DNA of 64,000 bases from Parcubacteria group bacterium (GTDB lineage Bacteria > Patescibacteriota > Minisyncoccia > Phycocordibacterales > Phycocordibacteraceae), in assembly GCA_028286615.1 (NCBI GenBank), contig JAQBRG010000003.1:83330-147329 (forward strand). The letters are read 5' to 3'. The position numbers and the translations under genes are program-made. Position 1 is the stretch's first letter, and each line of letters starts with the position of its first letter. Shown here piece by piece: positions 1 to 29,008 of the stretch. Under the pieces are notes generated by a model. It was not told the origin of the DNA and searched no databases. It worked only from the letters and a program-made list of their open reading frames with translations.

Positions 1-2242
1 TACCGCCTTCTGGATACTTAATCCGTGTAATGAGATCCGTAAGAGAGGTTGCGTTAGTATCGGCCGAGAATGTGTAGCTGCTGTCTTGGCGCATTGCCTT
101 CAGGAAGTCCATCACGCCATCTGAATCGATGTCCTCTATAAAGACTCCCTGGTCTGTTCCTCCGTTATTAAAAGCGTATGGAATCGTGTAGTCGGTTGTT
201 GTCGCAAAACCCGTACCTGTGTTCAACCAGACACCCGTACCGCCTGCCTCTCCAGTCCGTGACTGCACAAAGTCAACCATGCCGTCAGCGTTAATATCCA
301 TGAAGCGCACACCCAGATCGTCTCCATAAATGCGGGATATAGAGGCGGGTAGAACCCACGAAGTTTCTTCTGCCCAGCCCGTACCATCTCCCTTATTTAG
401 ATACACATGCCTATTGATGGTACCGTACTGGTCAGTGTAGGAAATAACTATATCAATAAGACCATCACTATTGATGTCTACGAGTCTCGTGGCATTTGTA
501 CCGTCAGCAAAGATTACTGGAATTGTATAATTTGTATCTTGAGTCCAGCCTGTTCCGTCTCCATTATTCAAATAGACCCTTTTAATAATTGTGCCGCCAT
601 CGTTATGAGACCGAAGCAGATCTGCATTGCCGTCTCCATTTACATCTCCGAAGCGCGTTCCCACATCACTTGAATTGCTGAATGGTTCAGGAATTGTAGA
701 GCTAGCCTGCAGGATCCATCCACCCATTTTATTATTTAAATATGTAGTGTTAGCAGACCCGGATGATGGATTCGAGTACGAGTGCAGCAGATCGGGATAC
801 TGATCTCCGTTTATATCGACAAACCGAACCCCCTCATCCGAACCATTGTTGCGTACAAAGATCTCAGGAATCGTCAGGGTACTGCTCGCAGTCCAACCAG
901 TTCCGTCGTGATTATTTAGATATACGGCTCTAGATTGGGTGCCGAAATCATCATAGGACTTCAGTAGGTCGACATACCCATCGTTATTAATATCTACAGG
1001 ACGCATACCTCGATCTCCTCCGTTCCAACTGAATATTTCAGGTATGGAGTAAGTACTACTTGCAACAAAAGCCCGAGTAGAAGTGGCGTATGTAAACTCG
1101 ATTGCCGGAAGTGTAGTGGTCGCACTAGACTCATCCGTTCCAGACTCAGTGACACTTTGAAGTAGTTTCTTTGCTCCATCATCGCCATTCGTGTAGCTCA
1201 GAGCATACGTGTGCACAGGAATGCCTCCCACTTTTGCTTGTATCTGACTTATATAGTATTTCGATGTGACGGGAAAACCGCTTGTGGTAGATGTGGCGAC
1301 ATCCGTGCGTGTAGAGCGTGTAAACTCAAGCGAGAGGTCACCGTCCGTGCTGCCGTTCCCTGTGTAACTAATACTTGCGGGGTAGATTTGGCCACTGTCT
1401 TTATAATAGGAATACTTAACGTAGTTGTCGTTTGCATCCCGAACCTCTTCAAGCATCCACTTATACACTTGAGCTGTGCTGGTCGCGTTATCCTGACGCG
1501 TTGAAGTCGCATACCCATACTTATAGGTCTTTCCTGCTTTATCCGTCGCTAACCACTGATTATTTGAGAACTCGTACTTTATAAAGTCACCGTTGTCTGC
1601 CTTCGCATAATAAGTTGTGCTCGCGGTTGATGTTGCAAGGTCTCCGGATAAAGAGGAGTAGAAATAATTACCTGAATACATATCCTCTACTCCTGTCTTG
1701 TTCGTGCGTTGAATGTACGGAATATCGATACTCCAACCCTGACCAAAGGTATTGGTTACCGAAGTATCTTGACTCGAGTATGTAAGAGTGTGCTTCGGCT
1801 CCATACCATTGCGTCCGGGAGGAGCAGTAATCTCATATCGGTAGACCAATGCCCCAGACGACCTGTCCGCTTCTGGGAGCTTTGCCTTCTCGATGGGTTC
1901 GTTCGCAATATACCCAGCCACTCCTGGAAGAAGAGCAGATTCCATCACTGGCGGATCAATTCCTTTTCCGTCTATAGTTTCTGGATTTACTTCTTTACCA
2001 GAATCCAGTGTCTCTGAGAAGTTGTTTTCCGTGCTACCTAAATCAGGGTTTGGCATTCCGAACACTTCTGTACCCGGGTTTATATCTGTGCCTTGCTCTG
2101 TAGGATCAGGAGTGTCAACCCTTTCCTCAGCTTGTACCACAGTACCAAAAGGAGAAAGAATAAAAGAAAAAAGAAGCGCCAAAGACACCGCTTTCTTAAG
2201 GAGTAGCATTCGTGCCGCCCATGTTGGGTGGTGTCTGTTCAT
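1..2242 (-). CDS. Partial N-terminal part of a large secreted SpvB/TcC-Rhs-like toxin. It has a signal peptide, an SpvB/TcaC N-terminal domain and at least six FG-GAP/VCBS repeats, and the C-terminus continues beyond the window start.
   Basis: My own reverse-strand translation from the ATG at 2240-2242: MNRHHPTWAARMLLLKKAVSLALLFSFILSPFGTVVQAEE, then ...YRYEITAPPGRNGMEPKHTLTYSS..GQGWSIDIPYIQR (SpvB-like), then repeated VDINNDGYVDLL / VDINGDQYPDLL / GDVNGDGNADLL / VDINSDGLIDIV / MDINADGMVDFV / EDIDSDGVMDFL (FG-GAP). Not in the ORF track because it has no in-window stop. Confidence 0.6.
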   Translation of the reverse strand, partial: MNRHHPTWAARMLLLKKAVSLALLFSFILSPFGTVVQAEERVDTPDPTEQGTDINPGTEVFGMPNPDLGSTENNFSETLDSGKEVNPETIDGKGIDPPVMESALLPGVAGYIANEPIEKAKLPEADRSSGALVYRYEITAPPGRNGMEPKHTLTYSSQDTSVTNTFGQGWSIDIPYIQRTNKTGVEDMYSGNYFYSSLSGDLATSTASTTYYAKADNGDFIKYEFSNNQWLATDKAGKTYKYGYATSTRQDNATSTAQVYKWMLEEVRDANDNYVKYSYYKDSGQIYPASISYTGNGSTDGDLSLEFTRSTRTDVATSTTSGFPVTSKYYISQIQAKVGGIPVHTYALSYTNGDDGAKKLLQSVTESGTDESSATTTLPAIEFTYATSTRAFVASSTYSIPEIFSWNGGDRGMRPVDINNDGYVDLLKSYDDFGTQSRAVYLNNHDGTGWTASSTLTIPEIFVRNNGSDEGVRFVDINGDQYPDLLHSYSNPSSGSANTTYLNNKMGGWILQASSTIPEPFSNSSDVGTRFGDVNGDGNADLLRSHNDGGTIIKRVYLNNGDGTGWTQDTNYTIPVIFADGTNATRLVDINSDGLIDIVISYTDQYGTINRHVYLNKGDGTGWAEETSWVLPASISRIYGDDLGVRFMDINADGMVDFVQSRTGEAGGTGVWLNTGTGFATTTDYTIPYAFNNGGTDQGVFIEDIDSDGVMDFLKAMRQDSSYTFSADTNATSLTDLITRIKYPEGG

Positions 2243-2441
2243 TGCCCGCGTACACGATCATGGTAACCCTATCTATAAAAGTAAGTAAAGGGCATTTACG
2301 AGAACAACTTTCGTATCGTTATTATTCGACCAGACTCATTTCTTAAGAACCGCGTGGGCAAGAATGAGGACTGTCGAACCTCAGAAACACCAACAGTCAC
2401 AAGGCTTTTTGAGGGCTTTGCGGCTGTTGGCTCTTCTTATG

Positions 2442-2514
2442 TGGACCCTAGCGGATTCGAACCGCTGACATCTTCATTGCAAATGAAGCGCTCTACCAAC
2501 TGAGCTAAGGGCCC
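2442..2514 (-). tRNA. tRNA-Ala (anticodon TGC)
   Basis: Reverse-strand cloverleaf GGGCCCTTAGCTCAGTTGGTAGAGCGCTTCATTTGCAATGAAG...GGTTCGAATCC...AGGGTCCA. G3:U70 Ala identity pair, anticodon loop TTTGCAA, CCA not encoded. Confidence 0.85.
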
Positions 2515-2583
2515 GTACGCTGTTCGTACGGAACTTATAGAATGTACCGTCTTTTAAAAAACGAGGCAAGTGGGAAAAGCGGA

Positions 2584-3576
2584 CTAGCGCTTCTTGCTAA
2601 TAGCGAGGTCTATAAGGTGCGAAAGGAACTCTGGGAAAGAAACTCCAACGGCAGCCAGAGACTTTGGAAGGAGAGATTCTCGAGTGAGGCCAGGAAGCGT
2701 ATTGGTTTCCAGATAGTACACACCCTTAGGAGAGATTATGAAATCTGAACGGGAATAATGCCTAAGACCTAGATGCTGGTGCATAGTCTTTGCAGCTTCC
2801 ATGAGGCTCTCAGACACATTCTTTGGAAAACGGCCTGGGCAGATCTCTTTAGTTGCTCCTGAATACTTAACATCGTACGAAAAGAATTCGGCATGTTCTG
2901 GAGGAACAATCTCAATAGGTGGAAGCATGTATATTGCTTCGTCTCGCATGTGTTCAACAACTCCAGCAGTTGCTTCAGTGCCTCGTATTAGTTCCTCAAC
3001 AAGGACACCTCCTGCACCTTCTTCTATAAGATTCGATATTGCTTGATACACGGGCAAGTATCCACCAACAATAGAAATACCCACAGACGATCCCCAACGT
3101 ATGGGCTTAACAACAACAGGTTGAGGAAAGGTGCGAATAATCTCTCGGGCAGCTATGTCCGCATCCATTCCTGGTTCAACCAAATAATACCTGGGGGTTA
3201 GAAGACCGGCTTCTCGTGCCTTCTCCTTAGCAAGCACTTTATGCATTGCGAGGTATGAACCAAAGGAATCTGAGCCCGTGAAAGGAACTCCATGACGCTC
3301 GAGAAGCTTCTGTACTTCCCCATCCTCTCCGTACTCTCCATGCAGTCCCACAACAACCACGTCAACAGAGCGAAGAATCGCCGATGGTTCTATCTTGCGT
3401 CCTCGTTCGTGCCAAGCTCCTTCCTTGTCTATGTAAATGTCACGAGTTGTATATCGTCCGTCTGGAAGATTGGAAAGAATGGCATGGCCGCTAGCGAGCG
3501 AGACTTCATGTTCGCGTGAAGGACCTCCTCGCAATACCCCAACAACAGTGCCGCGCATATGTTGAGAGTATAGCAA
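2584..3576 (-). CDS. ddl: D-alanine--D-alanine ligase (probable true start at the internal M7, MRGTVVGVLRGG, near 3558)
   Basis: ATP-grasp Ddl signature: N-terminal GVLRGGPSREHEVSL and end-to-end Ddl-like sequence in the 330-aa ORF. Confidence 0.85.
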   Translation of the reverse strand: MLYSQHMRGTVVGVLRGGPSREHEVSLASGHAILSNLPDGRYTTRDIYIDKEGAWHERGRKIEPSAILRSVDVVVVGLHGEYGEDGEVQKLLERHGVPFTGSDSFGSYLAMHKVLAKEKAREAGLLTPRYYLVEPGMDADIAAREIIRTFPQPVVVKPIRWGSSVGISIVGGYLPVYQAISNLIEEGAGGVLVEELIRGTEATAGVVEHMRDEAIYMLPPIEIVPPEHAEFFSYDVKYSGATKEICPGRFPKNVSESLMEAAKTMHQHLGLRHYSRSDFIISPKGVYYLETNTLPGLTRESLLPKSLAAVGVSFPEFLSHLIDLAISKKR

Positions 3577-3611
3577 AGGAAAAAGCTCGAAGCGTAGTAG
3601 TGCTTCGAGCT
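3575..3611 (-). terminator. Rho-independent terminator (minus strand) between the uvrC region and ddl
   Basis: Hairpin AGCTCGAAGC-GTAGTAGT-GCTTCGAGCT followed on the minus strand by a T-run. Confidence 0.5.
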
Positions 3612-3978
3612 TTGGTCCTGCATATGCAGGGATTGCCTTTGTGCGGGCAGGCTTGCCAGAGTTTGATCTGCGACTTCCCGTAATCAGTCGGTCTGGAGAT
3701 CTCTGTCAACTGAACTAGCGTGTTACCCAGTAGGCGTTTGCGAGCGGACATCCATCCGCTTGGGGCTGTGATGTAGAGTGTTGATTTTCGGCGCTTAGAG
3801 CGCGGGAATCATAACTTGAACTTGTACATGTGCGTTCCCTCTTTTGGCGAAGCGTGCGCTTTTTGTGAAGCCTGTCCCGTGAAAGCCGAATCCGTTAGAA
3901 ACGACTATGCCCATCTAAGTGAGCGCGACGGGCTGCAATGGCCATCACATCAATAGGATACATGTATATTTATATTTG

Positions 3979-5241
3979 TCAAGACGTGAGCCGCATGGCC
4001 TTAGTTCTGGCTTTTCTGTGATTCTTAAGAGAGAAGCGGTGTGCTTCAGAATTGGCGAGCACCGCATCTGCATCCGTTATGCCTGCACGAAGACTTCCGA
4101 GCACTTCTCTTGGTCTGTGCTTCTCGTCTTTAACAACGGCAACAACTGGTATGCCAACTCCCACATCCTTCAAGACATCTTCTGCCGCTTTCTTATGTGT
4201 CTTCCCTCCATCAACCACAAATGCCTTAGGAAGAGGCCATTCAGGGTGTCCCAGTCTGCGAGAAAGTATTTCTTTGAGAGAAGCGATGTCGTCATTCAGA
4301 GATTTGCCACCAGATCCTCGAATACGGAACGTGCGATACTCCTTCTTGTCTGCTAAGCCGTTCTCAACAACAACCATAACTCCAATAGCATTGGTGCCTG
4401 AGATGTGTGCAGTGTCATACGCTTCAATACGTGGTCCCAACTGATCGCTTCCCCTGTCTTCCTTTATAAGAGAGACGTCTTGTATGTGGTCTAGAGCAAA
4501 AAGCTGGCGTTTGATAAGATTTGCGTCTTCGAAGCGTTCTTCTTTGGCTGCCTGCTTCATGTCTTTTGTAAGGGTGGTGCGAAGTGCCTTAACGCGTCCA
4601 GAAAGGAACAGCGTTACGTTACGTATAGAACGCATGTAGTCGCTCTTTTCCATGTTGCGTGGGTACTGCCCAATCTGTTGGTTGAACTCAACCTTTGCTT
4701 GCGTATGCTTGTTCCCTTCGCCAACCGGCTTTGGTGTATCAAAGAAAGGAAAGATGCGTCGTATGAGACGAAGTCCTTCTCGGAGCTGGTACCCGCTTGG
4801 GAAAGGACCGTGTGTTGAACTGAGCTTTACTCCCGTTCTTGGGATTACGCACTCCTTAAAATCTATTTCTCCTCCACGAACAGCAAGTACTCGAGGAATA
4901 TATTCGTCTGTTACAACCGCATACAGGAATGTCTTATCGTCCTTGCCCATGGAGTTAGCATCTGGACGATGTTCACGTATAAGAGCCGCTTCACGCACGA
5001 GTGCCTCAAGCACGGTTGGCGTTGTCTCGTGCATAACACTGTCTGCTTTTGTAACCATATCCACAATACGAGGACCGCGAGTTGCGATGAGGTCGTCATC
5101 AAAATATGAGCGCACACGGTCACGCAAGGAAGTTGCCTTCCCAATATAAAGAATCTTCTTAGACTTCCCTTTGCCTTGGGTAAAGAGATACACCCCGGGA
5201 CAATCGGGGAGATCGAGTTTTGGTAAATCCGTGCGTTGCAT
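3979..5241 (-). CDS. uvrC: Excinuclease ABC subunit C, short form (GIY-YIG plus UvrB-interaction and endonuclease domains; no C-terminal HhH)
   Basis: N-terminal GIY-YIG block LPDCPGVYLF...ILYIGKATSLRDRVRSYF; 420 aa. Confidence 0.75.
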   Translation of the reverse strand: MQRTDLPKLDLPDCPGVYLFTQGKGKSKKILYIGKATSLRDRVRSYFDDDLIATRGPRIVDMVTKADSVMHETTPTVLEALVREAALIREHRPDANSMGKDDKTFLYAVVTDEYIPRVLAVRGGEIDFKECVIPRTGVKLSSTHGPFPSGYQLREGLRLIRRIFPFFDTPKPVGEGNKHTQAKVEFNQQIGQYPRNMEKSDYMRSIRNVTLFLSGRVKALRTTLTKDMKQAAKEERFEDANLIKRQLFALDHIQDVSLIKEDRGSDQLGPRIEAYDTAHISGTNAIGVMVVVENGLADKKEYRTFRIRGSGGKSLNDDIASLKEILSRRLGHPEWPLPKAFVVDGGKTHKKAAEDVLKDVGVGIPVVAVVKDEKHRPREVLGSLRAGITDADAVLANSEAHRFSLKNHRKARTKAMRLTS

Positions 5242-13684: not shown

Positions 13685-16600
13685 CTACCGCCTTTTTCGT
13701 GGTGTGCTTTTCTTCTTCGGTTCCCCGCCTTCAAGGGAGTAGATTTCGTCTCGTATAAGCGCTGCTGTTTCAAAATCCAGTGCCTCGACCGCTTCTTCCA
13801 TCTGTTTGCGCTTGTCTTTAATAAAGGCAACCGGGTCTTCCTTGTACAACTTCTCGTCTAGAGAGAGAAGCGAGTGGACGGTCTTCTGATGTTCGCTACG
13901 CATGGTTTCAGCAATGTCTCGAATTTCCTTCTTAATTGTTACGGGTGTTATGCCGTGCTTGTCGTTGTACGCCTTTTGTATAGTACGGCGGCGGTTAGTC
14001 TCTCCAATTGCGCGCTCCATTGAACCGGTCATAACATCGGCATAGAGAATAACCTTGCCTAGGATATTTCGGGCAGCGCGTCCGATAGTTTGAATGAGCG
14101 AGGTTTCAGAACGAAGGAACCCTTCCTTGTCAGCATCAAGAATTCCCACGAGTTCAACCTCAGGAAGATCGAGTCCTTCGCGAAGAAGGTTCACACCCAC
14201 AAGTACGTCAAAGTCCCCCTTACGGAACGCGGTGAGAATCTCAATACGTTCTATCGTCTTAATGTCGCTATGCAGGTATTCAGCTTTTATCTTCCTCTCG
14301 CGAAGGAATTCGGAAAGATCCTCTGCCATCTGTTTGGTTAGAGTTGTGGCAAGGGCACGGCCTCCACGCTTAATTACAATCTCAGCTTCGTGGATGAAGT
14401 CTGCCACCTGTCCCTTGTAGTCTCCGCTTTCAACAATTGGCTTAACCTCAAGCTCTGGGTCTATAAGTCCGGTAGGACGAATGATCTGCTCAACAACCTG
14501 TCCGTTGGGAGCAACGCTATGTTCGCGCTCGTAATTGCCTGGAGTAGCGGTGGTGTAGATAGTCTGGCCAATGCGTTTCTCAAACTCATCGAACTTGAGT
14601 GGACGGTTGTCGCGAGCTGATGGCAAACGGAATCCGTGCTCAACAAGCACGTCTTTGCGCGAGCGGTCTCCCGCATACATACCACCAACCTGAGACACCG
14701 TTACGTGCGACTCGTCGATAATAGTAAGGAAGTCAGGGGTGCCGTCCTTCTTGTGCGGGAAGTATGAAAGCAGGGTGTGTGGAGGGTCTCCAGGAGCTCG
14801 TCCATCAAAGTGTCGCGAGTAGTTCTCAATGCCGCTCGTATAGCCAATCTCACGAATAAGCGCGAGATCATGCAGGGTACGGCGTTTGATACGTTCTGCC
14901 TCAAGAAGCTTCTCTTCTCGCTTGAAGTGCGCAAGCTGCTCATCTAGCTCCCTTTTGATATCTTCGATTGCGCGGTTGCGATCGTCTTCGCTCGTAACGA
15001 AGTGTTTGGCTGGGAAAATAAACAGGGAATCTGGTTCTGCGGTCTTGGCGCGTGATACCGGATCCAAGCATTCAATGCGCCCTACCACATCCCCATCAAA
15101 GGTTATGCGGAATATGGAACGTTCGTTCGTTGGCATGAGTTCAACTGCGTTTCCAACTGCACGAAGCTTGCCGGGTTCAAGGTCTGCGTTCGTACGTTCG
15201 AAATAGATACCGACGAGTTTGCGAATAAGAGCTGCACGATTCTCTTCTGTACCCTTAATAACCTTTACGTGTCGCTTCTCGTATTCCTGGGGTGAACCAA
15301 GACCATAGATTGCAGAGACGGAGGCTACGATAATAACGTCGCTGCGTGTGAGGAGAGATTGTGTAGCTGCGTGGCGAAGACGGTCAATCTCAGCATTGAT
15401 CTGTGCCTCCTTTTCTATATAGGTATCAGAGTGAGCGATATATGCTTCCGGCTGGTAGTAGTCATAGTAGGAAACGAAGTAGTGCACTTCGTTCTCGGGA
15501 AAGAATTCACGATACTCTTGGGCTAGCTGAGCTGCCAAAGTCTTGTTATGCGCCATCACCAAAGTTGGCTTTCCGAAGTTGGCTATTACGTTAGCTGCAG
15601 TATATGTATTATGGACAAACATACCACCGCGTCCAGCAAGGAAAGTTTCATTGCCGTCAACGGCGAAGTCGTAGACCTTGCCAGTACCATGTATCTTTTC
15701 AATACTTTGCACAGGTGTCCAGAATAGATTCAGAAGTACTTCCCAGTTATCAACAATTTCTTTAACAGCTGAAATTGACTCATGTGTCTTAAAGAAAGCT
15801 ACAAGCTTCTTTGTCACTGAGTAGGAAGGCTTACGTATACCCGTTTCTAACATAGACATATACGAACGCTCGATACCGCAAGCTGCGGCTACGTCTCTTT
15901 GATGTAGAGACAGTAATGTCCTTAGCTCTTTAATCTGTAAGCCTTGTATAGGTATGAGATCTACGTTTGTATTAGCAGACGGAGGAATTATTTTTTCAAG
16001 TGCTTTTTGTTTACGCGGTAAGAAGAATCCAATTTCCTCCTGAAATCGTTCAAGGCTGTCTTTACCGGAAATACTAATCTTCCATACCTCGTTTCTAAAG
16101 GTTTTTCCGGGAACTTTAACCATTTTTCTCTTTAGGCGTGCAACGATACCAAACCGAAGAAGCGCGTATAACAATTCTGACGCAAGCTTTTTACTTACCG
16201 TAGAAGCAGATACGATATTTTTATCTACCCCGCCATCTGCAGAGAAATAGGCGCTTAGTAGCTGGGCAAGCTGTGCATTCGACAATTCATTCCAGAATGG
16301 TGGAAGCTGCTTGGTTTGGGAATGGCTACCGCACCATTCTGCTAGAACGTCATGCCATAACAGACTATTTATTTGATAGTCGTATGTGCCTGGTCGGTGA
16401 CTGAAGGTCATGCCACGCAGAGTTACCTCTTTGCGCACGTCCTCAACGATTTCCTCATCACCTGACGAAATCGTCAAATATTTTCCAGTAGCGTGTCCTT
16501 CACCTATATAGAAGCCGAGGAGTCGCAAAAATGAAGGAGTTATTACTTGGATGGGTGAGGTTGCAAGTTTTAAAGAACGGCTTCCAAGCATCATTAGATT

Positions 16601-17314
16601 AGGAGCGACTAACTGAACTGATGCTAATGATGCTCGTTCGCCCAATGCAACGCGGTGGCGTTTGTAGTAAGGGAGTGTTGAGAGAAATTCATTACCCCAT
16701 CCACTGATACCGACAGGGGCGGCATAAAAAGAGTGCGCTGATCTTAACAAGACAGGAGTTACATTTACCTCTTTTAATTCTTGTGTAGGTCCATCTATGA
16801 ATCTTGGTACTGGAAGAAAGTCTCCAGCCCTAACATCCTCTGTTTTCAAAAGTATTAGCGTGCCGTCTCGCAAGACGTAAAAGTTATGGTCGCCCGTCGC
16901 AGTCACTTTCCTCCCACAGCTGCTTTCTATATCCCAGAGTTCTTCTGGCGAATGATGTCTGGATACTTGCGTAATTTGCTTCCAGGAGGATTTTCCAGTC
17001 GTAGGGTTTACGCTATACGTTTCTATATCTAAGAACTCAGTCTCGAGTAGCTCAGTATCTCCAAGCAATAAAGCCTCGTCTTGGTAGCGTATAAACAAAT
17101 CGTCAACATAGTCTCCGATAGCCAAGCATTCTGAACGGCTTTTATCACGTACGAGTACTGCTGTATCAGGAGTGACGCTCTTTCCAGAACCCGTAACTCC
17201 GAGCAAGGTCTGGTGCCGCATGCCCTTTTTAAGACCTTCGGTTAGTTTGGCTATGGCAGCCGGCTGGTCGCCGGCAGCGGGAAATGGAATATGGAGCTTA
17301 AATTGACCGTTCAT
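13685..17314 (-). CDS. uvrB: Excinuclease ABC subunit B interrupted by a 524-aa intein. The mature extein is about 685 aa.
   Basis: N-extein ...QTLLGVTGSGK; C-extein TYTAANVIANFGKPTLVMAHNKTLAAQLAQEYREFFPENEVHYFVSYYDYYQPEAY..., and UvrB helicase motifs to the C-terminus. Confidence 0.9.
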   Translation of the reverse strand: MNGQFKLHIPFPAAGDQPAAIAKLTEGLKKGMRHQTLLGVTGSGKSVTPDTAVLVRDKSRSECLAIGDYVDDLFIRYQDEALLLGDTELLETEFLDIETYSVNPTTGKSSWKQITQVSRHHSPEELWDIESSCGRKVTATGDHNFYVLRDGTLILLKTEDVRAGDFLPVPRFIDGPTQELKEVNVTPVLLRSAHSFYAAPVGISGWGNEFLSTLPYYKRHRVALGERASLASVQLVAPNLMMLGSRSLKLATSPIQVITPSFLRLLGFYIGEGHATGKYLTISSGDEEIVEDVRKEVTLRGMTFSHRPGTYDYQINSLLWHDVLAEWCGSHSQTKQLPPFWNELSNAQLAQLLSAYFSADGGVDKNIVSASTVSKKLASELLYALLRFGIVARLKRKMVKVPGKTFRNEVWKISISGKDSLERFQEEIGFFLPRKQKALEKIIPPSANTNVDLIPIQGLQIKELRTLLSLHQRDVAAACGIERSYMSMLETGIRKPSYSVTKKLVAFFKTHESISAVKEIVDNWEVLLNLFWTPVQSIEKIHGTGKVYDFAVDGNETFLAGRGGMFVHNTYTAANVIANFGKPTLVMAHNKTLAAQLAQEYREFFPENEVHYFVSYYDYYQPEAYIAHSDTYIEKEAQINAEIDRLRHAATQSLLTRSDVIIVASVSAIYGLGSPQEYEKRHVKVIKGTEENRAALIRKLVGIYFERTNADLEPGKLRAVGNAVELMPTNERSIFRITFDGDVVGRIECLDPVSRAKTAEPDSLFIFPAKHFVTSEDDRNRAIEDIKRELDEQLAHFKREEKLLEAERIKRRTLHDLALIREIGYTSGIENYSRHFDGRAPGDPPHTLLSYFPHKKDGTPDFLTIIDESHVTVSQVGGMYAGDRSRKDVLVEHGFRLPSARDNRPLKFDEFEKRIGQTIYTTATPGNYEREHSVAPNGQVVEQIIRPTGLIDPELEVKPIVESGDYKGQVADFIHEAEIVIKRGGRALATTLTKQMAEDLSEFLRERKIKAEYLHSDIKTIERIEILTAFRKGDFDVLVGVNLLREGLDLPEVELVGILDADKEGFLRSETSLIQTIGRAARNILGKVILYADVMTGSMERAIGETNRRRTIQKAYNDKHGITPVTIKKEIRDIAETMRSEHQKTVHSLLSLDEKLYKEDPVAFIKDKRKQMEEAVEALDFETAALIRDEIYSLEGGEPKKKSTPRKRR
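15608..17179 (-). mobile_element. Intein (Hint domain, LAGLIDADG homing endonuclease and internal HTH) inserted in the UvrB Walker-A/P-loop (GSGK|T)
   Basis: Intein begins SVTPDTAVLV (block A, Ser1); TATGDHNFYV (block B, TxxH); LLGFYIGEGH and LLSAYFSADGGVD (two LAGLIDADG motifs); HTH-like RDVAAACGIERSYMSMLETGIRKPS; ends ...VYDFAVDGNETFLAGRGGMFVHN followed by extein Thr+1. Confidence 0.8.
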
Positions 17315-20399: not shown

Positions 20400-22622
20400 C
20401 TACTTGACTTGCTTAGTAAACAAATCTACTTTTGGTCTTCCGCTAAAGGTACTAATCTCCCTCAGCTTGGTATCAGGATTGTATACCTGCCCCTCTGTAA
20501 CGTAATACGAGACTCCATTTTCCTCCATCGTATTCTCAGATAGCGTATATACACCTATACCTGGGTTATCGAAGGAGTAGGTTTGTGCAAACAGGCTTCG
20601 CTCCTTATAAGTACCTCCATGCACAAACAAGTTGCCCTTGGTATCGCTATATACATGCGGCTCGTTAGGATTTACTTCAATTCCCTGCGCGTTACGAACT
20701 GTCTCTGAGCTTGCTTCAGGCTGCGCTTTTTCTTCAGTTACCGTGGCAGAGACAGCAGCTGGAGCAGCCTCTGGCTTGGCTTCTGTTACTTTTGCTTTCT
20801 GCTCAAGAGGAGGCTTATTTTTTATAAAGGCTTCATATGCTTTGGATTTGTACCCGACATCTCTTACCATCTTCTCTTGAGTCTGGTTGTACTGTTCACG
20901 TTCAAAACCTGGAGGTATTTCCTTAGTTGAGTGCCATATGTTGAAGGAGTTTGCAGGGTCTGGTGTTACATCCATCTTCGCTGACATCTTGTATTTCTTT
21001 GGTGCAGTTTTAACTTCTTTCTTTGCGGCTTCCTTGTTAACAACAACCTTTGGAGGAGCTTCTGCACTACTCTTTGCTACAGGAGCTTTAATGCCCGCAC
21101 TCGCAGCTGATTTAGCTGCTGCGGGCTTTGTTGTTTGCTTCTGTATTTCTTTCGTGTGGTCGTTTCCGGGGTGTGACAAACCAAAGAAAGCAGCCAAGCC
21201 AGCTATGCCTGCTGCGCCCAGACCAATGAGGCCAGCTTTTTTCTTGGAGTTCTTTTTCGCTTCTGAGGGCGGTTTCGTTCCTTTAGCATTCTGCTTTTCT
21301 AAGAACTTCTCATACTGCTTTAGCGACATGCCGTGAGACGCTGCGAGGAGGTGAGGATTAGTATCTCCACTTACTGGAGCTGGTGTACGGCCGGCTTTGG
21401 CGTCTCTTTTTGCCATAGCTTTTTCATATGCCTTAACATTTTTATATCCCATAGCAGCTGCCATAAGGTATGGATTGTGTGGCATTGGCTTCTCCTCTAG
21501 AACTGGCTCAGGTTCGACACCTGCAGCTGGTGTTTCTGTCTCAGCGAGTGCTTCTGGGGTACTTGCTGGAGCAGGTGCGGCGTCAATCTTTGTAAAGCCA
21601 CCCTCATTCACAGATCTGTAATCTACAGGCGAAGAGTTCAAAGGACTTACGCCTGGGAACTGTTGCGGGTAGTTGGGATCTTGCTGCACTGGAGAAGAAA
21701 GGCTGGCCTGTTGAAGCAATTCTGCAAGCTTTTTCTTGGCTTCATCTCTGCTATCAAACATCTTTGGCTGCGGGAGTTGCTCTCCAAGTGCTTTGTCCAT
21801 GGCCTGTTGGTACGCTTCGAACTGTCCAGGCAAGAATTCAGGGACTGTAAGAGATTCAGCTACAGGCTCAGCGTCTACAGCGAGTACTTCAGGTTCCGCT
21901 GGCTCAACTTCAACAGGCTGGTTCTCTGTGACAACTTCAGCAGGTGCTTCTGCCTTTTTTGCTTCTGCAACTTTTTGTGCTGCTTCTAAAACCTCAGGGA
22001 TTATCTTCTGATCAAACTCGTCAGAAAGAGCATCGTATTCGTCATTTATTTTTTCTATGATTCGTTTACTTGGCTCTTTTTCCATTTGAGTTACAAGGGA
22101 TGTGATCCTTTTATAGGCATCGTATGCTTTTCCCCACTCTACTGGCACATCATGTACTTGAATTCCCATCGCACGCACGTCCTCGCCTAGCCACATAAAT
22201 CTATCCTTGGCTATTTTACGAGCTCTATCATATTCGTTTTCTTCCGCTGCTTCAGCGTTCTTAGAATCTTGTGGTTGCTCAGCAGATTCTATCTTTCCTT
22301 CAGCTGCTGCAGATATTACCTGCACATCCTGAGATGCTTTATCTTCTTCGACTTTAGCAGCAGGTCCCCCCTCTACCTTATCAACAGCAAAGTCTTCATA
22401 CGCAGATTCGTATTTTTTCTGTAGCTCTGCTTTCTTTTTAGAATCTGTAGAGCCTTCATAGGCGTTTAGAGCATCAATTGCAGCATAGTATTTAGCTGCC
22501 GGCACACCTGCTTTCGTACGCTTTACATTCAAGCTAGCAAGAATGCCTCTCTCTTTATCAACATCCAGTGTCTTTTTTATTCCTGAATCAATCGGTGGGT
22601 TTGGAGGGCTATTAAGTGACAT
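20400..22622 (-). CDS. Large low-complexity (A/E/K/P-rich) membrane-anchored protein of 740 aa, with one central TM helix and a globular C-terminal domain
   Basis: Compositional bias, TM LIGLGAAGIAGLAAFFGL. Sits immediately downstream of the VirB4-like ATPase gene. Confidence 0.55.
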   Translation of the reverse strand: MSLNSPPNPPIDSGIKKTLDVDKERGILASLNVKRTKAGVPAAKYYAAIDALNAYEGSTDSKKKAELQKKYESAYEDFAVDKVEGGPAAKVEEDKASQDVQVISAAAEGKIESAEQPQDSKNAEAAEENEYDRARKIAKDRFMWLGEDVRAMGIQVHDVPVEWGKAYDAYKRITSLVTQMEKEPSKRIIEKINDEYDALSDEFDQKIIPEVLEAAQKVAEAKKAEAPAEVVTENQPVEVEPAEPEVLAVDAEPVAESLTVPEFLPGQFEAYQQAMDKALGEQLPQPKMFDSRDEAKKKLAELLQQASLSSPVQQDPNYPQQFPGVSPLNSSPVDYRSVNEGGFTKIDAAPAPASTPEALAETETPAAGVEPEPVLEEKPMPHNPYLMAAAMGYKNVKAYEKAMAKRDAKAGRTPAPVSGDTNPHLLAASHGMSLKQYEKFLEKQNAKGTKPPSEAKKNSKKKAGLIGLGAAGIAGLAAFFGLSHPGNDHTKEIQKQTTKPAAAKSAASAGIKAPVAKSSAEAPPKVVVNKEAAKKEVKTAPKKYKMSAKMDVTPDPANSFNIWHSTKEIPPGFEREQYNQTQEKMVRDVGYKSKAYEAFIKNKPPLEQKAKVTEAKPEAAPAAVSATVTEEKAQPEASSETVRNAQGIEVNPNEPHVYSDTKGNLFVHGGTYKERSLFAQTYSFDNPGIGVYTLSENTMEENGVSYYVTEGQVYNPDTKLREISTFSGRPKVDLFTKQVK

Positions 22623-22632
22623 AGATAAATAG

Positions 22633-25386
22633 TTAAGAAAGGTATCGAGCTCTAATGGTTGCTTCTATAGTGGAACGGTCTCGCCCGTAGGTCAAGTAGG
22701 AAAGCTGCCTAAGATCGTCTACCTGCGCCAAGTTCCCTTCGCTAAGTGGGAGTGTTTGCATATTGAACGGCTTCTGCGGTATGCCATGAGCAAGAAGACG
22801 GATATATGCGTTTCTGTTTTCAAGGTTTGTAAAGTCCGAAGAGGTAAATGCAGGTGCAAAAAGTTTCTCAAAGAATTCTCCGTCTTCCTGTCCAACGCGG
22901 AACGCTGCCATTGATCCAACGTTTCCGAACACCGCATCACGTATCTTCTGGTCAACCTGCGCCAGGAACTGGTGCGCAAGGGTTAGAGAGAGTTTGTACT
23001 TGCGAGCTTCTGAAAGAATACCTGGGATAGAGTCCGTAGTTATGTTCTGGAACTCGTCTATGTAGAGGTAGAACGGTGGGAAGTCTCCACGTGGATTGTC
23101 TGCACGAGATAGTGCAGCCATAAACAACTTTCCAACAAGAATAAGACCGAGCAGGTTGGCGTTTCGTTCTCCCAGTCTTCCCTTTGAAAGATTAACGAGA
23201 AGAATCTTCTTGTTGTCTATAACTTCACGGAACTTAAAGGAAGATTCCTGCTGGCCAATAATAGGACGCATGAAGTCGTTTGCCGTGAACTCGTCGAACT
23301 TGTTCGTGATATACGGCACAATGTTCTGAAGCGATGCCTCGCCTTCAGCTTTTGTAGCAATTTCCTGCCAGAACTGGTTAACGATTGGGTTGTTGCTCTT
23401 AGAAAGTTTGAGATTTCTAAACTCTGCGTTTGAAAGTACGCGTCCAATATCCATGAGTGTAGACCCTGATGCCGGATCTTCCATAACCAGCTGTGTTGCG
23501 TTACGGAAGTACTGTTCGAAGGCAGGTCCCATACTCTCGGGCACATCTCCATACAACTGCCTGAATATCATAAGCATCTCGTTCACAATGAAAGATTTCT
23601 GCTCGGGCTTAGACGGATCGTACTCAAGCATGTTGAGACCGAACGGACGGTCTAGGTATGCTGGATCAAAGTAGATAACGTCTTCGTATCGCTCCGGAGG
23701 AACGCTCGCTAGCACGTCGAGAATATCGTTGCCGTGCGGATCTATGAAGCAGACACCGTTTCCGGCTTTAATATCCTGTTCAATCATAGTCTTAAGGAAT
23801 CCAGTCTTTCCGGCTCCCGTCTGTCCAATAACATAGAGATGGCGAAGACGGTCCTCAGGTGCGAGGAATACGTCTGTAAGTGTTCCGCGGAAGTTGTTCG
23901 TACCCAGCTTCATACCTTCCTTCGGCATTTCCATAGGAGCGGCAGCTGCTGCCGTACGCGATTGTTTCAAGTGTGGCGAAGACTCAATACCCTTTGGAGG
24001 GAAGTGGTACATCGTGGTGAGTTCGCGAAGAGAAAGCGGAAGGAGAGACCCTTGTGAGAAGAGACGGAAAGAGAAGTTGCGGAAGAAGCGCTTGATATCT
24101 CCTCGCTTAGGTTCGACGAAAGCGAGTCTGTTGCCTGTTGTATTTTCAAACTGGTTAAAGGAAGATGCCAGTTCTTCAATTATTTGATGTGCACGCGAAG
24201 GATCTTGTGAGGACACGGCAAGACGAATATTTGCGGCAACAATCGGAGCAGCAATCTTCTTCTCAAGCATTTCAATACCCTTCTCATCTATTGGGCCTTT
24301 ATTCTCAGGCTTCTTAGAGTTGTTAGCGAAGATATTAAACGCTTCACGAGCCAAGTCTCCTACGAATGTTTCAGGGAGCGAGAAAGCTTCAGAACGAGTC
24401 TTTCCTTCGCGAAGTGCATGCAGCACTTTTCTATAATGTTCTACGTAATGGTTGCCAACAGGCTTGAAGATTATCTGAAGCGCAGCTCCCTCGCCCTCCG
24501 GAGCAATCTTCGCAAATGCATTTAAAAGAGAGTTGAGAGGATCGTAGTCAAAGTCTTGGTAGTCCTTAAGCGGCAACATGCCTACATCCTTAAACTTTCC
24601 AACAACTCCCACAGACGTACCTCCGTCCATGAAGATGTTGTAGTCGTTTGGTTGAGCGGTTATGTGTGCTCCCGGGAATATAGCGAGCAATTGCTTTTCA
24701 AAAAGGTCTTTGCGGGAGTTAGGGACCGCTGCGTAGAACATAAGGTGTGGATGGTCTACCGGTACCGCAAGCTCAAGCGTGAAGTATGGCGGCTCGCTTT
24801 TATGTGCTTCTCCAACTGAAAGCATGCCTGAGTAGAACTGTTCCATTGCGGACACCAGTTCCTTCAATGTCTTTTCTCTTCCTTCCTGAGTACTTGCAAC
24901 TTCAGGTAGCGCAATCTCGTAGAGGGTCATGTGCAGCGCCTTCCATTCAGGCTGTCCCTCCTTAATGCCTTGAATTGGCATTCCCTTTAAAACGTACTGC
25001 ACGAGGAAGCGATGGAAGTCGTCTTCAAGGTGCGGATTAGCTAGCTTTTCAAGTACCGCAAACGCATTTGCTACACCCTTCGTCTCCATAATGTTGCGAA
25101 GTTCTTCTATAGTTTCGTCGTCTGCCTTTGGATCAAGGTTTAGGGCAAGCTCATGCGCGGCTTCTGCAGGCATGCGGTATCCAGGAGCAAAATGTTCTTC
25201 TGCCGCATTCTCGCGATGATGCGTTATGCGTTCGTGCGCAACTTCAGCGCGCGGCATAACCGTGTTGAGCGCAGCAAGCTCTGCTTCTTTCGCAGCTACT
25301 TGCTCACGCAGATATGCAATCTCATCTTCAGGCGATGCGATCGGCCGTGTGGGTCCCTCCATTATGTAGAAGTATACGTTATTCAA
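22633..25386 (-). CDS. VirB4/TrbE-like (DUF87 / AAA_10-type) type IV secretion ATPase of 917 aa
   Basis: C-terminal-half P-loop HLYVIGQTGAGKTGFL...CFIDPHGND; Walker B FYLYIDEFQNI; KYKLSLTLAHQFLAQV resembles the VirB4/VirD4 family. A VirD4-like coupling protein cannot be excluded. Confidence 0.55.
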   Translation of the reverse strand: MNNVYFYIMEGPTRPIASPEDEIAYLREQVAAKEAELAALNTVMPRAEVAHERITHHRENAAEEHFAPGYRMPAEAAHELALNLDPKADDETIEELRNIMETKGVANAFAVLEKLANPHLEDDFHRFLVQYVLKGMPIQGIKEGQPEWKALHMTLYEIALPEVASTQEGREKTLKELVSAMEQFYSGMLSVGEAHKSEPPYFTLELAVPVDHPHLMFYAAVPNSRKDLFEKQLLAIFPGAHITAQPNDYNIFMDGGTSVGVVGKFKDVGMLPLKDYQDFDYDPLNSLLNAFAKIAPEGEGAALQIIFKPVGNHYVEHYRKVLHALREGKTRSEAFSLPETFVGDLAREAFNIFANNSKKPENKGPIDEKGIEMLEKKIAAPIVAANIRLAVSSQDPSRAHQIIEELASSFNQFENTTGNRLAFVEPKRGDIKRFFRNFSFRLFSQGSLLPLSLRELTTMYHFPPKGIESSPHLKQSRTAAAAAPMEMPKEGMKLGTNNFRGTLTDVFLAPEDRLRHLYVIGQTGAGKTGFLKTMIEQDIKAGNGVCFIDPHGNDILDVLASVPPERYEDVIYFDPAYLDRPFGLNMLEYDPSKPEQKSFIVNEMLMIFRQLYGDVPESMGPAFEQYFRNATQLVMEDPASGSTLMDIGRVLSNAEFRNLKLSKSNNPIVNQFWQEIATKAEGEASLQNIVPYITNKFDEFTANDFMRPIIGQQESSFKFREVIDNKKILLVNLSKGRLGERNANLLGLILVGKLFMAALSRADNPRGDFPPFYLYIDEFQNITTDSIPGILSEARKYKLSLTLAHQFLAQVDQKIRDAVFGNVGSMAAFRVGQEDGEFFEKLFAPAFTSSDFTNLENRNAYIRLLAHGIPQKPFNMQTLPLSEGNLAQVDDLRQLSYLTYGRDRSTIEATIRARYLS

Positions 25387-27427: not shown

Positions 27428-29008
27428 TTAAAGCCTAGATGAAGCTTCTTTCAGCCTCTTTAGCACGAAGTCTCGAGGAAGCACCGACAAGAACCAGCCA
27501 ACTTGTGGACCTGAAGTTCGCGCAAGGAAGATATGGTAGAGCGCAGTAAAAAGTTCTTTTGCAGGAATCGGGACTGTTGTTTTTAATTCGTGCAGCTTGG
27601 TATGTATTTCAACTCCCGTACGCGGTTCTGCTTCTATGTATTCTGTAAGAGCAACGAGAGCTGCCTTTTGGGTATCCGAAAGTGTGCCTTCAGGAAGAGT
27701 TTCTTGGAGATTGAAACGGAACTGCTCTGTGGCATAGGTTGAAAGCCAGAACTTTGCATACTCAGCGCGCTCAGTCAGAGCTACTTTTTCTGTATCGGTA
27801 AGAGAGCTTCCTTTTACACGCTCGGCTTCTTCCTCAAGCGAGAGATGTGGCATCTGCACCACAAAAGCAACCTGTCCGAAGCGCAACTGCCAAGGTGCGG
27901 CAGCTTCCGCTTGGTTCGCAGGCAGCTGAGTCAACATGTAGAGACGGGTAAAGTCGTCAGCAACACCCTGTCGCACGAGTTCAGCGAGCTCGTCATACCA
28001 ATCAAACCAACGCGGAATACTATCTCCCTCAGGATCTACATCAATCTGCTGGTTGATGTCTTTGCCAATAAGCGCAAGACGCAGCACTTCTGATGGAAAC
28101 AGTTCAGCAATTTCTCGTGCTGAAGAACCTCGTCCTTTAGACGAAGACATTTTCTTTCCTCCAACCAGGAAGAACTCATAGGGAATATCGTATGGAGGCG
28201 TTATATCAAAAACTTCGCGTGCAATATGGTTTGCTACGTCTCGAGACCCACCTTTAGTTGAGTGGTCTTTGCCTCCTCCTTCAATATCAACGCCGAGCAC
28301 AGCCCACTTAACTGCCCAATCTGCTTTCCAAAACAGTTTCGCGGCTCCTTTAAATGGAGCAACGCGTCCTTTATGTCCGCAGGGAACGCATCCGTCCGGA
28401 CTCTTCTCGCAGCTGTATGCAACAGTCTCACCATCAAAATCACTTGCGTTTGTGGTCATCATCTTTCCGCACTCCTCACACACAACAGATATTGGAAGCC
28501 ATCCCTCAGGCTTGTCTGAGCCGGATGTTTCTTTCAAGATACGTCGAATATCTGAAGCACGCTCAAGAGCGATGCGGATATACGAATCCATCTTTCCTGC
28601 GCAATACAGATCTTTGTATGCGTGGTAATAGATTGGAGTGAATCCAGACTTCTTATGCACTTCTATAAATTCTGCAGCAAAGTACTCAGCAAAGTTTTCA
28701 AAGCCTTCTACAGGAGAAGGGACCGCGTACAATGGTTTTCCAAGATAGGGCGTGAAGCGCTCCTGGTCTAAATAACTTTGCACCGTATCAAAAGGATCAA
28801 AGTCATTTAACTCGTACTGGTACTCGTTTGGAATACCGTATTCAGAAAGCACTTCGCTAACGAGACCATGTATAGCAACACCACGCATTGACCCGATATG
28901 GATGCGGCCAGAAAGCGTCTTTTCATCACGAATGAGAAGCGGCTTTCCACCCGCTTTTGGAGCGCGTGTATCTTGAATTTCTTTAGCGATTCGGTCTACC
29001 CAGAACAT
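27428..29008 (-). CDS. lysK: Lysine--tRNA ligase, class I
   Basis: HIGH-type motif RIHIGSMRGV; KMSKS-type GKKMSSSKGRG; 526 aa. Confidence 0.85.
   Translation of the reverse strand: MFWVDRIAKEIQDTRAPKAGGKPLLIRDEKTLSGRIHIGSMRGVAIHGLVSEVLSEYGIPNEYQYELNDFDPFDTVQSYLDQERFTPYLGKPLYAVPSPVEGFENFAEYFAAEFIEVHKKSGFTPIYYHAYKDLYCAGKMDSYIRIALERASDIRRILKETSGSDKPEGWLPISVVCEECGKMMTTNASDFDGETVAYSCEKSPDGCVPCGHKGRVAPFKGAAKLFWKADWAVKWAVLGVDIEGGGKDHSTKGGSRDVANHIAREVFDITPPYDIPYEFFLVGGKKMSSSKGRGSSAREIAELFPSEVLRLALIGKDINQQIDVDPEGDSIPRWFDWYDELAELVRQGVADDFTRLYMLTQLPANQAEAAAPWQLRFGQVAFVVQMPHLSLEEEAERVKGSSLTDTEKVALTERAEYAKFWLSTYATEQFRFNLQETLPEGTLSDTQKAALVALTEYIEAEPRTGVEIHTKLHELKTTVPIPAKELFTALYHIFLARTSGPQVGWFLSVLPRDFVLKRLKEASSRL

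Follow-up and report, generated by a model that had tools for sequence, protein, structure and literature searches.

The left edge of a 64-kb stretch of DNA from a Parcubacteria group bacterium (contig JAQBRG010000003.1, positions 83,330 to 147,329; the whole 64,000-nucleotide stretch is referred to here as the window) carries the 5' part of a large minus-strand gene, and the question raised by this locus is what kind of protein is encoded by a gene of which only the beginning can be read. The original prediction, made from the sequence alone, had described an unlisted open reading frame (ORF) at 1-2242 as the N-terminus of a polymorphic toxin with a signal peptide, an SpvB/TcaC-type domain and at least six FG-GAP repeats. 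Using a combination of domain searches, structure modeling and a large survey of relatives, we conclude with good confidence that this ORF encodes the beginning of an Rhs polymorphic toxin with fused TcB- and TcC-type parts (a “BC cocoon”) in a Parcubacteria-group chromosome. The observation of a toxin front end is confirmed, and it concerns a truncated copy whose informative half lies outside the window.

The ORF itself was readily recovered. A minus-strand frame runs from an ATG at position 2242 to position 2 as 747 codons without a stop and leaves the window edge open, with the window holding 747 codons plus one base of the gene (1-2242). Its start is well defined because an in-frame TGA (2258-2260, minus strand) sits five codons upstream of the ATG, and ORF lists do not show it only because frames left open at an end are not entered in them. 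The original prediction had proposed hidden Markov model (HMM) searches for SpvB and FG-GAP as a check, and Pfam models of both match the 747-residue ORF. Homologues of this protein measure 2000-3400 aa and, judging from them, the readable part (2242 to 2) would constitute the N-terminal ~30% of a protein resembling a TcB-TcC fusion of the Rhs type. All features of the gene described below are on the minus strand.

Two consecutive domains account for most of the readable protein. Residues 121-394 (1061-1882) form an SpvB/TcaC-type N-terminal beta domain that is matched by Pfam SpvB (PF03534) with E=1.4e-12 and 47.9 bits (cut-off 22). The same region matches TcdB2, YenB and the SpvB N-domain 6p0x in a Foldseek structure search, as well as TcdB1, YenB and SpvB with a family profile; in TcB this domain forms the start of the shell. 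Residues 395-733 (44-1060) constitute a six-bladed FG-GAP beta-propeller with four strands per blade. Pfam FG-GAP_3 (PF13517) matches six stretches of it (E=1.5e-23), DSSP assignment of an AlphaFold2 model gives six four-stranded blades at a predicted local distance difference test score (pLDDT) above 90, and Foldseek matches the propeller to those of TcB and to integrin-like lectins. Each blade keeps a DxNxD[GQ]xxD calcium-loop motif, with six motifs starting at residues 417, 476, 533, 589, 649 and 704 at a spacing of 55-60 residues, while 2000 shuffles of the sequence give a mean of 0.014 motifs. These are DINNDGYVD (residues 417-425; 968-994), DINGDQYPD (476-484; 791-817), DVNGDGNAD (533-541; 620-646), DINSDGLID (589-597; 452-478), DINADGMVD (649-657; 272-298) and DIDSDGVMD (704-712; 107-133). 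Both the SpvB/TcaC-type domain and the six FG-GAP repeats of the original prediction thus stand.

The fold of the fragment as a whole points to the same family of proteins. An AlphaFold2 model of the 747 residues, built from 41 homologues, has a mean pLDDT of 85.5 and a predicted template modeling (TM) score of 0.79. When this model was compared with the PDB using Foldseek, TcB chains came out on top, led by TcdB2-TccC3 (6h6e_F, E=1.1e-27, query-normalised TM score 0.61) and including TcdB1 (6l7i_F) and YenB (9c4k, 4igl, 5kis). They are followed by mosquito SGS1, by fungal GlcNAc lectins that have integrin-like propellers and by the SpvB N-domain 6p0x. A family profile likewise matches TcdB1 (E=3.1e-46), YenB (E=1.4e-44) and SpvB (E=1.8e-13). 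A single-sequence search of PDB sequences gave no match, and TcB is reached by the family profile only. The ORF therefore has both the SpvB domain and the six-bladed FG-GAP propeller of a TcB-type N-terminal module.

At the window edge, residues 734-747 (LTDLITRIKYPEGG; 2-43) align as the first strand of the TcdB_midN/RHS shell, which is cut by the edge. This strand matches the consensus DLLxxITxPxGG and, in 37 of 40 aligned homologues, leads without a break into TcdB_midN, being followed there by the pattern ...TYKxSxxY...NPxLPF...DGxG...YxYxGGxYY...DRKFAGF. Only 14 residues of the midN region are inside the window, which is too short for Pfam scoring.

Ahead of these domains lies an N-terminus that looks like an export signal. 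In a hydropathy scan, residues 1-38 (MNRHHPTWAARMLLLKKAVSLALLFSFILSPFGTVVQA; 2129-2242) show basic residues, hydrophobicity from residue 18 to 36 and a VQA|EE site, with putative cleavage after VQA. AlphaFold2 predicts residues 6-29 to be helical, as a signal or anchor segment, and residues 30-114 to be disordered with pLDDT below 50. A similar hydrophobic N-terminus is present in 95 of 104 long relatives that start with Met. The predicted signal peptide therefore holds up as a signal-like segment on the basis of hydropathy, the VQA|EE site and the modeled helix, and we infer that it is of the Sec type. It is followed at residues 39-120 (1883-2128) by an acidic disordered linker, rich in Pro, Gly and Thr and with a net charge of -14, which is defined by pLDDT and composition and has comparable counterparts in two relatives (P0350 and P0351).

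What lies beyond position 1 must be approached through relatives, of which there are many. An exhaustive HMMER search of 1.84 billion representatives (50% clustering) returned 8459 proteins at E<=0.001 and 1399 at E<=1e-30, with roughly three quarters of the best 150 matches measuring 1800-3900 aa. Protein scans of GTDB representative genomes and JGI metagenomes also recovered relatives only, at 22-51% identity. The SpvB/FG-GAP Rhs family is very common in bacteria of the candidate phyla radiation (CPR), and the suggestion that such a gene is notable in a reduced genome is not sustained given the 8459 representatives. NCBI names these homologues “SpvB/TcaC N-terminal domain-containing” or “FG-GAP-like repeat-containing” proteins, and we found no paper devoted to the family in CPR bacteria.

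Of all relatives the closest is P0350, a protein of 2644 aa with 52% identity from residue 2 onward and a signal peptide that is nearly the same. It continues into RHS repeats with two Ig_Rha78A_N inserts, the TIGR03696 core and the motif NSYSYARNNPIRYSDPEGL, and ends in a glycine-zipper-like tip of ~190 aa; an 87-aa ORF follows its gene. Complete genes are also found at loci from Adlerbacteria (L001, 2567 aa), Saccharibacteria (L002, 2074 aa), Peribacteria (L003, 2303 aa) and Parcubacteria (L004, 2535 aa) and at locus L006 (2334 aa). All five proteins begin with a signal-like N-terminus and carry SpvB, FG-GAP and RHS repeats as well as a core end of the form NSY.YA.NNP....DP.G., after which their tips are unrelated to one another. 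Overall, an Rhs core end and a tip are present in all seven relatives with a readable complete gene context, and the TIGR03696 core scores above cut-off in P0350, P0351, L002 and L003. On a larger scale, 111 representatives reach 1800 aa or more, and a core-end HMM has a match in 102 of them, which carry tips of 139-231 aa. The other nine stop amid repeats or inserts, which suggests contig truncation.

Additional domains decorate the shells of several relatives. For example, Laminin_G_3, Ig_Rha78A_N (two in P0350), Gly_rich_2 and Bact_surface_Ig-like inserts occur among the RHS shells of L001, L004, L010, P0350 and P0351. A further relative of 3129 aa (P0352) has SpvB, TcdB_midN and FG-GAP matches at two separate positions together with LamG and an RNase tip; this arrangement suggests a tandem duplication of its N-terminal module.

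The C-terminal tips and the genes that follow them have the features of polymorphic toxins. The tips are highly diverse, as 78 of them fall into 54 sequence clusters by BLAST. RNase tips are found in L002 and P0352, and two Barstar genes come after the barnase-type RNase tip (PF00545) of L002. In L003, L004, L006, L010, L012 and L013, the toxin gene is succeeded by small unannotated ORFs. Orphan Rhs-tip cassettes sit downstream of the main toxin genes in two loci: that of L006 (17459-18553) repeats the core end PIAGSDPSGL in front of a different, alpha/beta-hydrolase-like tip, and that of L001 (an Rhs fragment at 15564-16349) lies near a large transposase-looking ORF. Several relatives have tips that are glycine-zipper-like and membrane-active in appearance. 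The relatives thus show the hallmarks of Rhs polymorphic toxins, and by extension the shell, cleavage motif, tip and immunity gene of this gene are predicted to lie beyond position 1.

Comparison with named systems sharpens the assignment. The window protein shares with TcB (TcdB2 and TcdB1 of Photorhabdus and YenB of Yersinia entomophaga; 6h6e, 6l7i, 4igl) the order of SpvB-type domain and six-bladed FG-GAP propeller, followed by what appears to be the start of the TcdB_midN shell, but identity is only 16-18%. It differs from TcB in having what appears to be a Sec-type signal peptide and an acidic linker of ~80 residues, and its relatives differ further in being fused to a TcC-like half and in having immunity genes, with no TcA seen nearby. 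Additionally, the window propeller keeps all six DxNxDGxxD loops, whereas the aligned loops of TcdB1 are mostly degenerate (for example DLKGEGVPG, DLMGAGLSD and DVLGSGQAH). Classical TcB and TcC are separate polypeptides without a signal peptide, while the relatives described here are single chains of 2000-3400 aa with a signal-like N-terminus. A TcA-like gene was seen neither in the 64-kb window nor within ~10 kb of eight related loci (L001-L004, L006, L010, L012 and L013), the whole genome not having been searched. We therefore do not consider the protein a member of a Tc (ABC) complex, because no TcA was seen, the relatives are fused and a signal peptide appears to be present. Natural TcB-TcC fusions, such as ABA52082.1 of Burkholderia pseudomallei, also combine the B and C parts in one polypeptide as the relatives do (PMC7861908). 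Those fusions occur in Proteobacteria that also encode Tc loci, in contrast to the CPR lineage and the apparent signal peptide seen here, and the shells of the CPR relatives are also interrupted by inserted Ig, LamG or Gly-rich domains.

With the Rhs/YD polymorphic toxins, among them RhsA, Tse5 and Tse15 of type VI secretion systems (T6SS), the relatives share RHS repeats, the TIGR03696 core and the PxxxxDPxG site, as well as hypervariable tips, downstream immunity genes and orphan cassettes. The T6SS type has a PAAR or plug domain where the window protein has its SpvB domain and propeller cap (PMC8765631), and export of the window protein would presumably be by Sec. No Pfam domain of the PAAR/prePAAR kind or for a VgrG-binding N-terminus with a plug was detected in the 747 residues, and T6SS Rhs structures align poorly with the fragment (TM 0.22 or less in Foldseek). 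As there is no PAAR or plug domain, this is not a T6SS-type Rhs protein. Another Rhs/YD polymorphic toxin is WapA of Bacillus subtilis. A giant Rhs toxin has also been mentioned in passing for a CPR bacterium, the Saccharibacteria member T. rhizospherense, as a 2487-aa RHS/YD “possible secreted toxin” that has an immunity gene next to it; it is described with PA14 and galactose-binding domains, and an SpvB/FG-GAP front end is not stated (PMC6031116).

Two partial likenesses remain to be distinguished. The N-domain of Salmonella SpvB (6p0x) has the same fold as the corresponding part of the window protein (target-normalised TM score 0.59, in keeping with the profile match given above), but in SpvB it is followed after a short linker by an ADP-ribosyltransferase, without propeller or cocoon. 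A YD shell with a propeller as its cap is a feature of teneurins and of mosquito SGS1 as well, and SGS1 (8fjp) is matched with E=1.6e-13. Teneurins, however, have an FN-plug and an NHL propeller with the toxin-like domain outside the shell (PMC8765631), while the window propeller is of the FG-GAP type, and no teneurin is among the top 50 fold matches in Foldseek. The TcC/Rhs/teneurin-type front end of the original prediction consequently needs correcting, as an SpvB domain with an FG-GAP propeller is the front end of TcB. The better label is a TcB-type front end of a fused BC Rhs toxin, and not TcC, T6SS Rhs or a teneurin.

Three other explanations for the ORF deserve consideration. The most credible of them, although very unlikely, is that the gene encodes a stand-alone surface adhesin or lectin, in which SpvB and a Ca2+-dependent FG-GAP propeller, perhaps with LamG or Ig domains, would mediate the epibiont's attachment to its host with no toxin involved. 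All six integrin-type Ca2+ loops are indeed kept, the propeller resembles those of GlcNAc-binding fungal lectins and integrin alpha chains, and many database homologues are only 500-1300 aa long. In most of the short homologues that were examined, either the end of the contig or one stop codon accounts for the short length. For example, P0005 stops within 30 nt of its contig end, and P0004 (975 aa) together with the next gene (1384 aa) is one frame at L010 (10001-17311) that a single TAG divides in two; the second part has RHS repeats, a core end and inserts of Gly-rich and Ig-like type. This split could be a pseudogene, a sequencing error or read-through. Also in favour of a short adhesin is P0037 (L012, 10001-13636), a complete “mini” member of 1211 aa with SpvB, three FG-GAP repeats, LamG and very few YD repeats (~230 aa), a repeat region that, from its length, looks too short for a closed cocoon. 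Even in this protein the Rhs core motif NSYSYANDNPIVYKDPNG is present and is followed by a terminal, glycine-zipper-like tip of 203 aa. On inspection of these short homologues, P0004, P0005 and P0037, all of them from long contigs, a short adhesin without a toxin was rejected. Moreover, the last residues of the window fragment correspond to the strand ahead of TcdB_midN, and the Rhs core end is present in nearly all long relatives.

We give similarly little weight, and slightly less, to a decayed or interrupted toxin gene that has an intact N-terminal part and a pseudogene or remnant downstream. The TAG that splits the L010 relative and the status of Rhs loci as recombination hot spots with orphan fragments make such decay plausible, but the 747 codons contain no stop, family-invariant or nearly invariant domain residues are found at their positions in the window sequence and the model is confident. 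This explanation also concerns present function only and does not contradict the family assignment. The least probable of the three is that the protein is the B (or BC) component of a classical Tc toxin, which would dock on a TcA pentamer whose gene is elsewhere in the genome and would inject a toxin into a eukaryotic or bacterial target. Both fold and profile match TcB over the SpvB domain, propeller and midN, and in Tc toxins the six-bladed propeller docks on TcA and opens as a gate (PMC6868009; PMC8765631). Set against this are the failure to see a TcA-like gene within the scope given above and the relatives' Sec-type signal peptides, B-C fusion, immunity genes and RNase/barstar tips, which are traits of interbacterial Rhs toxins rather than of insecticidal Tc toxins. 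In a survey of Tc loci, TcC proteins were furthermore 96.4% from Proteobacteria and 3.2% from Firmicutes (PMC7861908).

Several points also weigh against a fused BC Rhs toxin. None of the RHS shell, cleavage motif, toxin tip and immunity gene expected here is inside the window, and an interruption farther downstream is conceivable, as in the L010 relative with its one in-frame TAG. The best relative has only 52% identity and a locus without synteny to the window. The signal peptide was judged only by eye, from hydropathy and from the helix model. Finally, the mechanism by which Sec-exported BC cocoons would deliver a toxin without TcA is hypothetical.

With these points in mind, the relatives allow a working model of the fused BC toxin to be proposed. 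The pre-protein would leave the cell unfolded via Sec and fold outside, where the cocoon would either be tethered by the N-terminal helix and linker or be released. Another ~1300-1900 residues past the window edge would form an RHS/YD-repeat cocoon, in many cases bearing inserts of the Ig, LamG or Gly-rich kind, and the propeller would cap this cocoon as it does in TcB (PMC8765631; PMC6868009). The cocoon would end in the Rhs-associated core, an aspartyl autoprotease with the PxxxxDPxG site, and cleavage there would free a variable tip of ~140-230 aa (15-25 kDa) that is retained inside. One or more small immunity genes located downstream would protect the producer. The toxin would then be delivered on cell contact to neighbouring bacteria, be they the host cell or rival epibionts. 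Delivery is probably independent of TcA because no TcA was seen in the window or beside the relatives, and contact killing of neighbouring bacteria is favoured because the lack of a visible TcA is joined by signal peptides, B-C fusion and tips and immunity pairs of an antibacterial kind.

Given the six intact Ca2+-type loops and the LamG, Ig and Gly-rich inserts, it is conceivable, as speculation, that the cocoon does its own receptor binding. This thought may be extended to a more general proposal, namely that Sec-exported single-chain BC cocoons of CPR bacteria act as self-contained, TcA-independent delivery devices at the interface of epibiont and host. The propeller would have kept six functional Ca2+ sites and would serve as a lectin-like receptor sensor, Ig, LamG and Gly-rich inserts would replace the receptor-binding domains of TcA, and binding to the target envelope would open the gate and free the toxin. 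Taken as a whole, we regard this proposal as unlikely although well short of negligible.

The genes around the toxin ORF are of an ordinary kind. Upstream on the same strand are tRNA-Ala(UGC) (2441-2514, ~200 bp 5' of the toxin gene), Ddl, a short UvrC, a histidine phosphatase, UvrA, a pentapeptide-repeat protein, a histidine kinase, an intein-containing UvrB and TGT, and farther along the window are a class-I LysRS, SerRS, TopA, RelA/SpoT and ParB. With neighbors of this kind the setting is an ordinary chromosomal one. Ddl and TopA of the window are 100% identical to MDB5264659.1 and MDB5264716.1 (Parcubacteria group bacterium), and their next-best matches are to Patescibacteria and Paceibacterota at 75-84% identity. 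The GC content of the ORF is 46.5% compared with 48.2% for the window, a composition that gives no sign of recent horizontal transfer. A tblastn search found no other RHS or SpvB pieces in the 64-kb window, and a promoter and terminator scan of 1-3700 found nothing above shuffle expectation near the gene start. Carriage by phage was considered and is unsupported, as viral contigs give FG-GAP-level matches only, at 21-33% identity. The tRNA gene is a possible island boundary, and the toxin gene may sit on an island integrated at tRNA-Ala(UGC) whose far boundary is outside the window. Among relatives, L010 and L013 adjoin integrase or recombinase genes, and the L010 locus holds a phage integrase, ArdC, an OLD-family nuclease and a PIN-domain protein.

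Several neighboring minus-strand genes have features of their own. The UvrB gene (13685-17314, 1209 aa) contains an intein with LAGLIDADG homing-endonuclease and helix-turn-helix domains, and the related CPR locus L012 has an intein in DnaB. UvrC (3979-5241) is only 420 aa long, with GIY-YIG, UVR and RNase-H-like endonuclease domains and no Pfam match for the C-terminal helix-hairpin-helix. Two adjacent large ORFs at 20400-25386 encode proteins of 917 aa, with a weak HerA/DUF87 P-loop match only, and 740 aa, with no Pfam match; they may be a VirB4-like or other secretion or DNA-translocation pair. The lysyl-tRNA synthetase at 27428-29008 is of the class-I type (PF01921).

As the family is large and already annotated in generic terms, this gene adds a member rather than a principle. 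It does raise the question of how a TcB-type cocoon releases and translocates its cargo without TcA or a T6SS, one that the truncated copy cannot address. A small Parcubacteria genome would appear to be spending perhaps 7-8 kb on a single gene for antagonism, in keeping with the idea that polymorphic toxins serve CPR epibionts as weapons against their hosts or rival epibionts. If the proposal outlined above is true, then a self-contained BC cocoon would represent a third way of emptying an Rhs cocoon, besides injection through TcA and firing by a T6SS.

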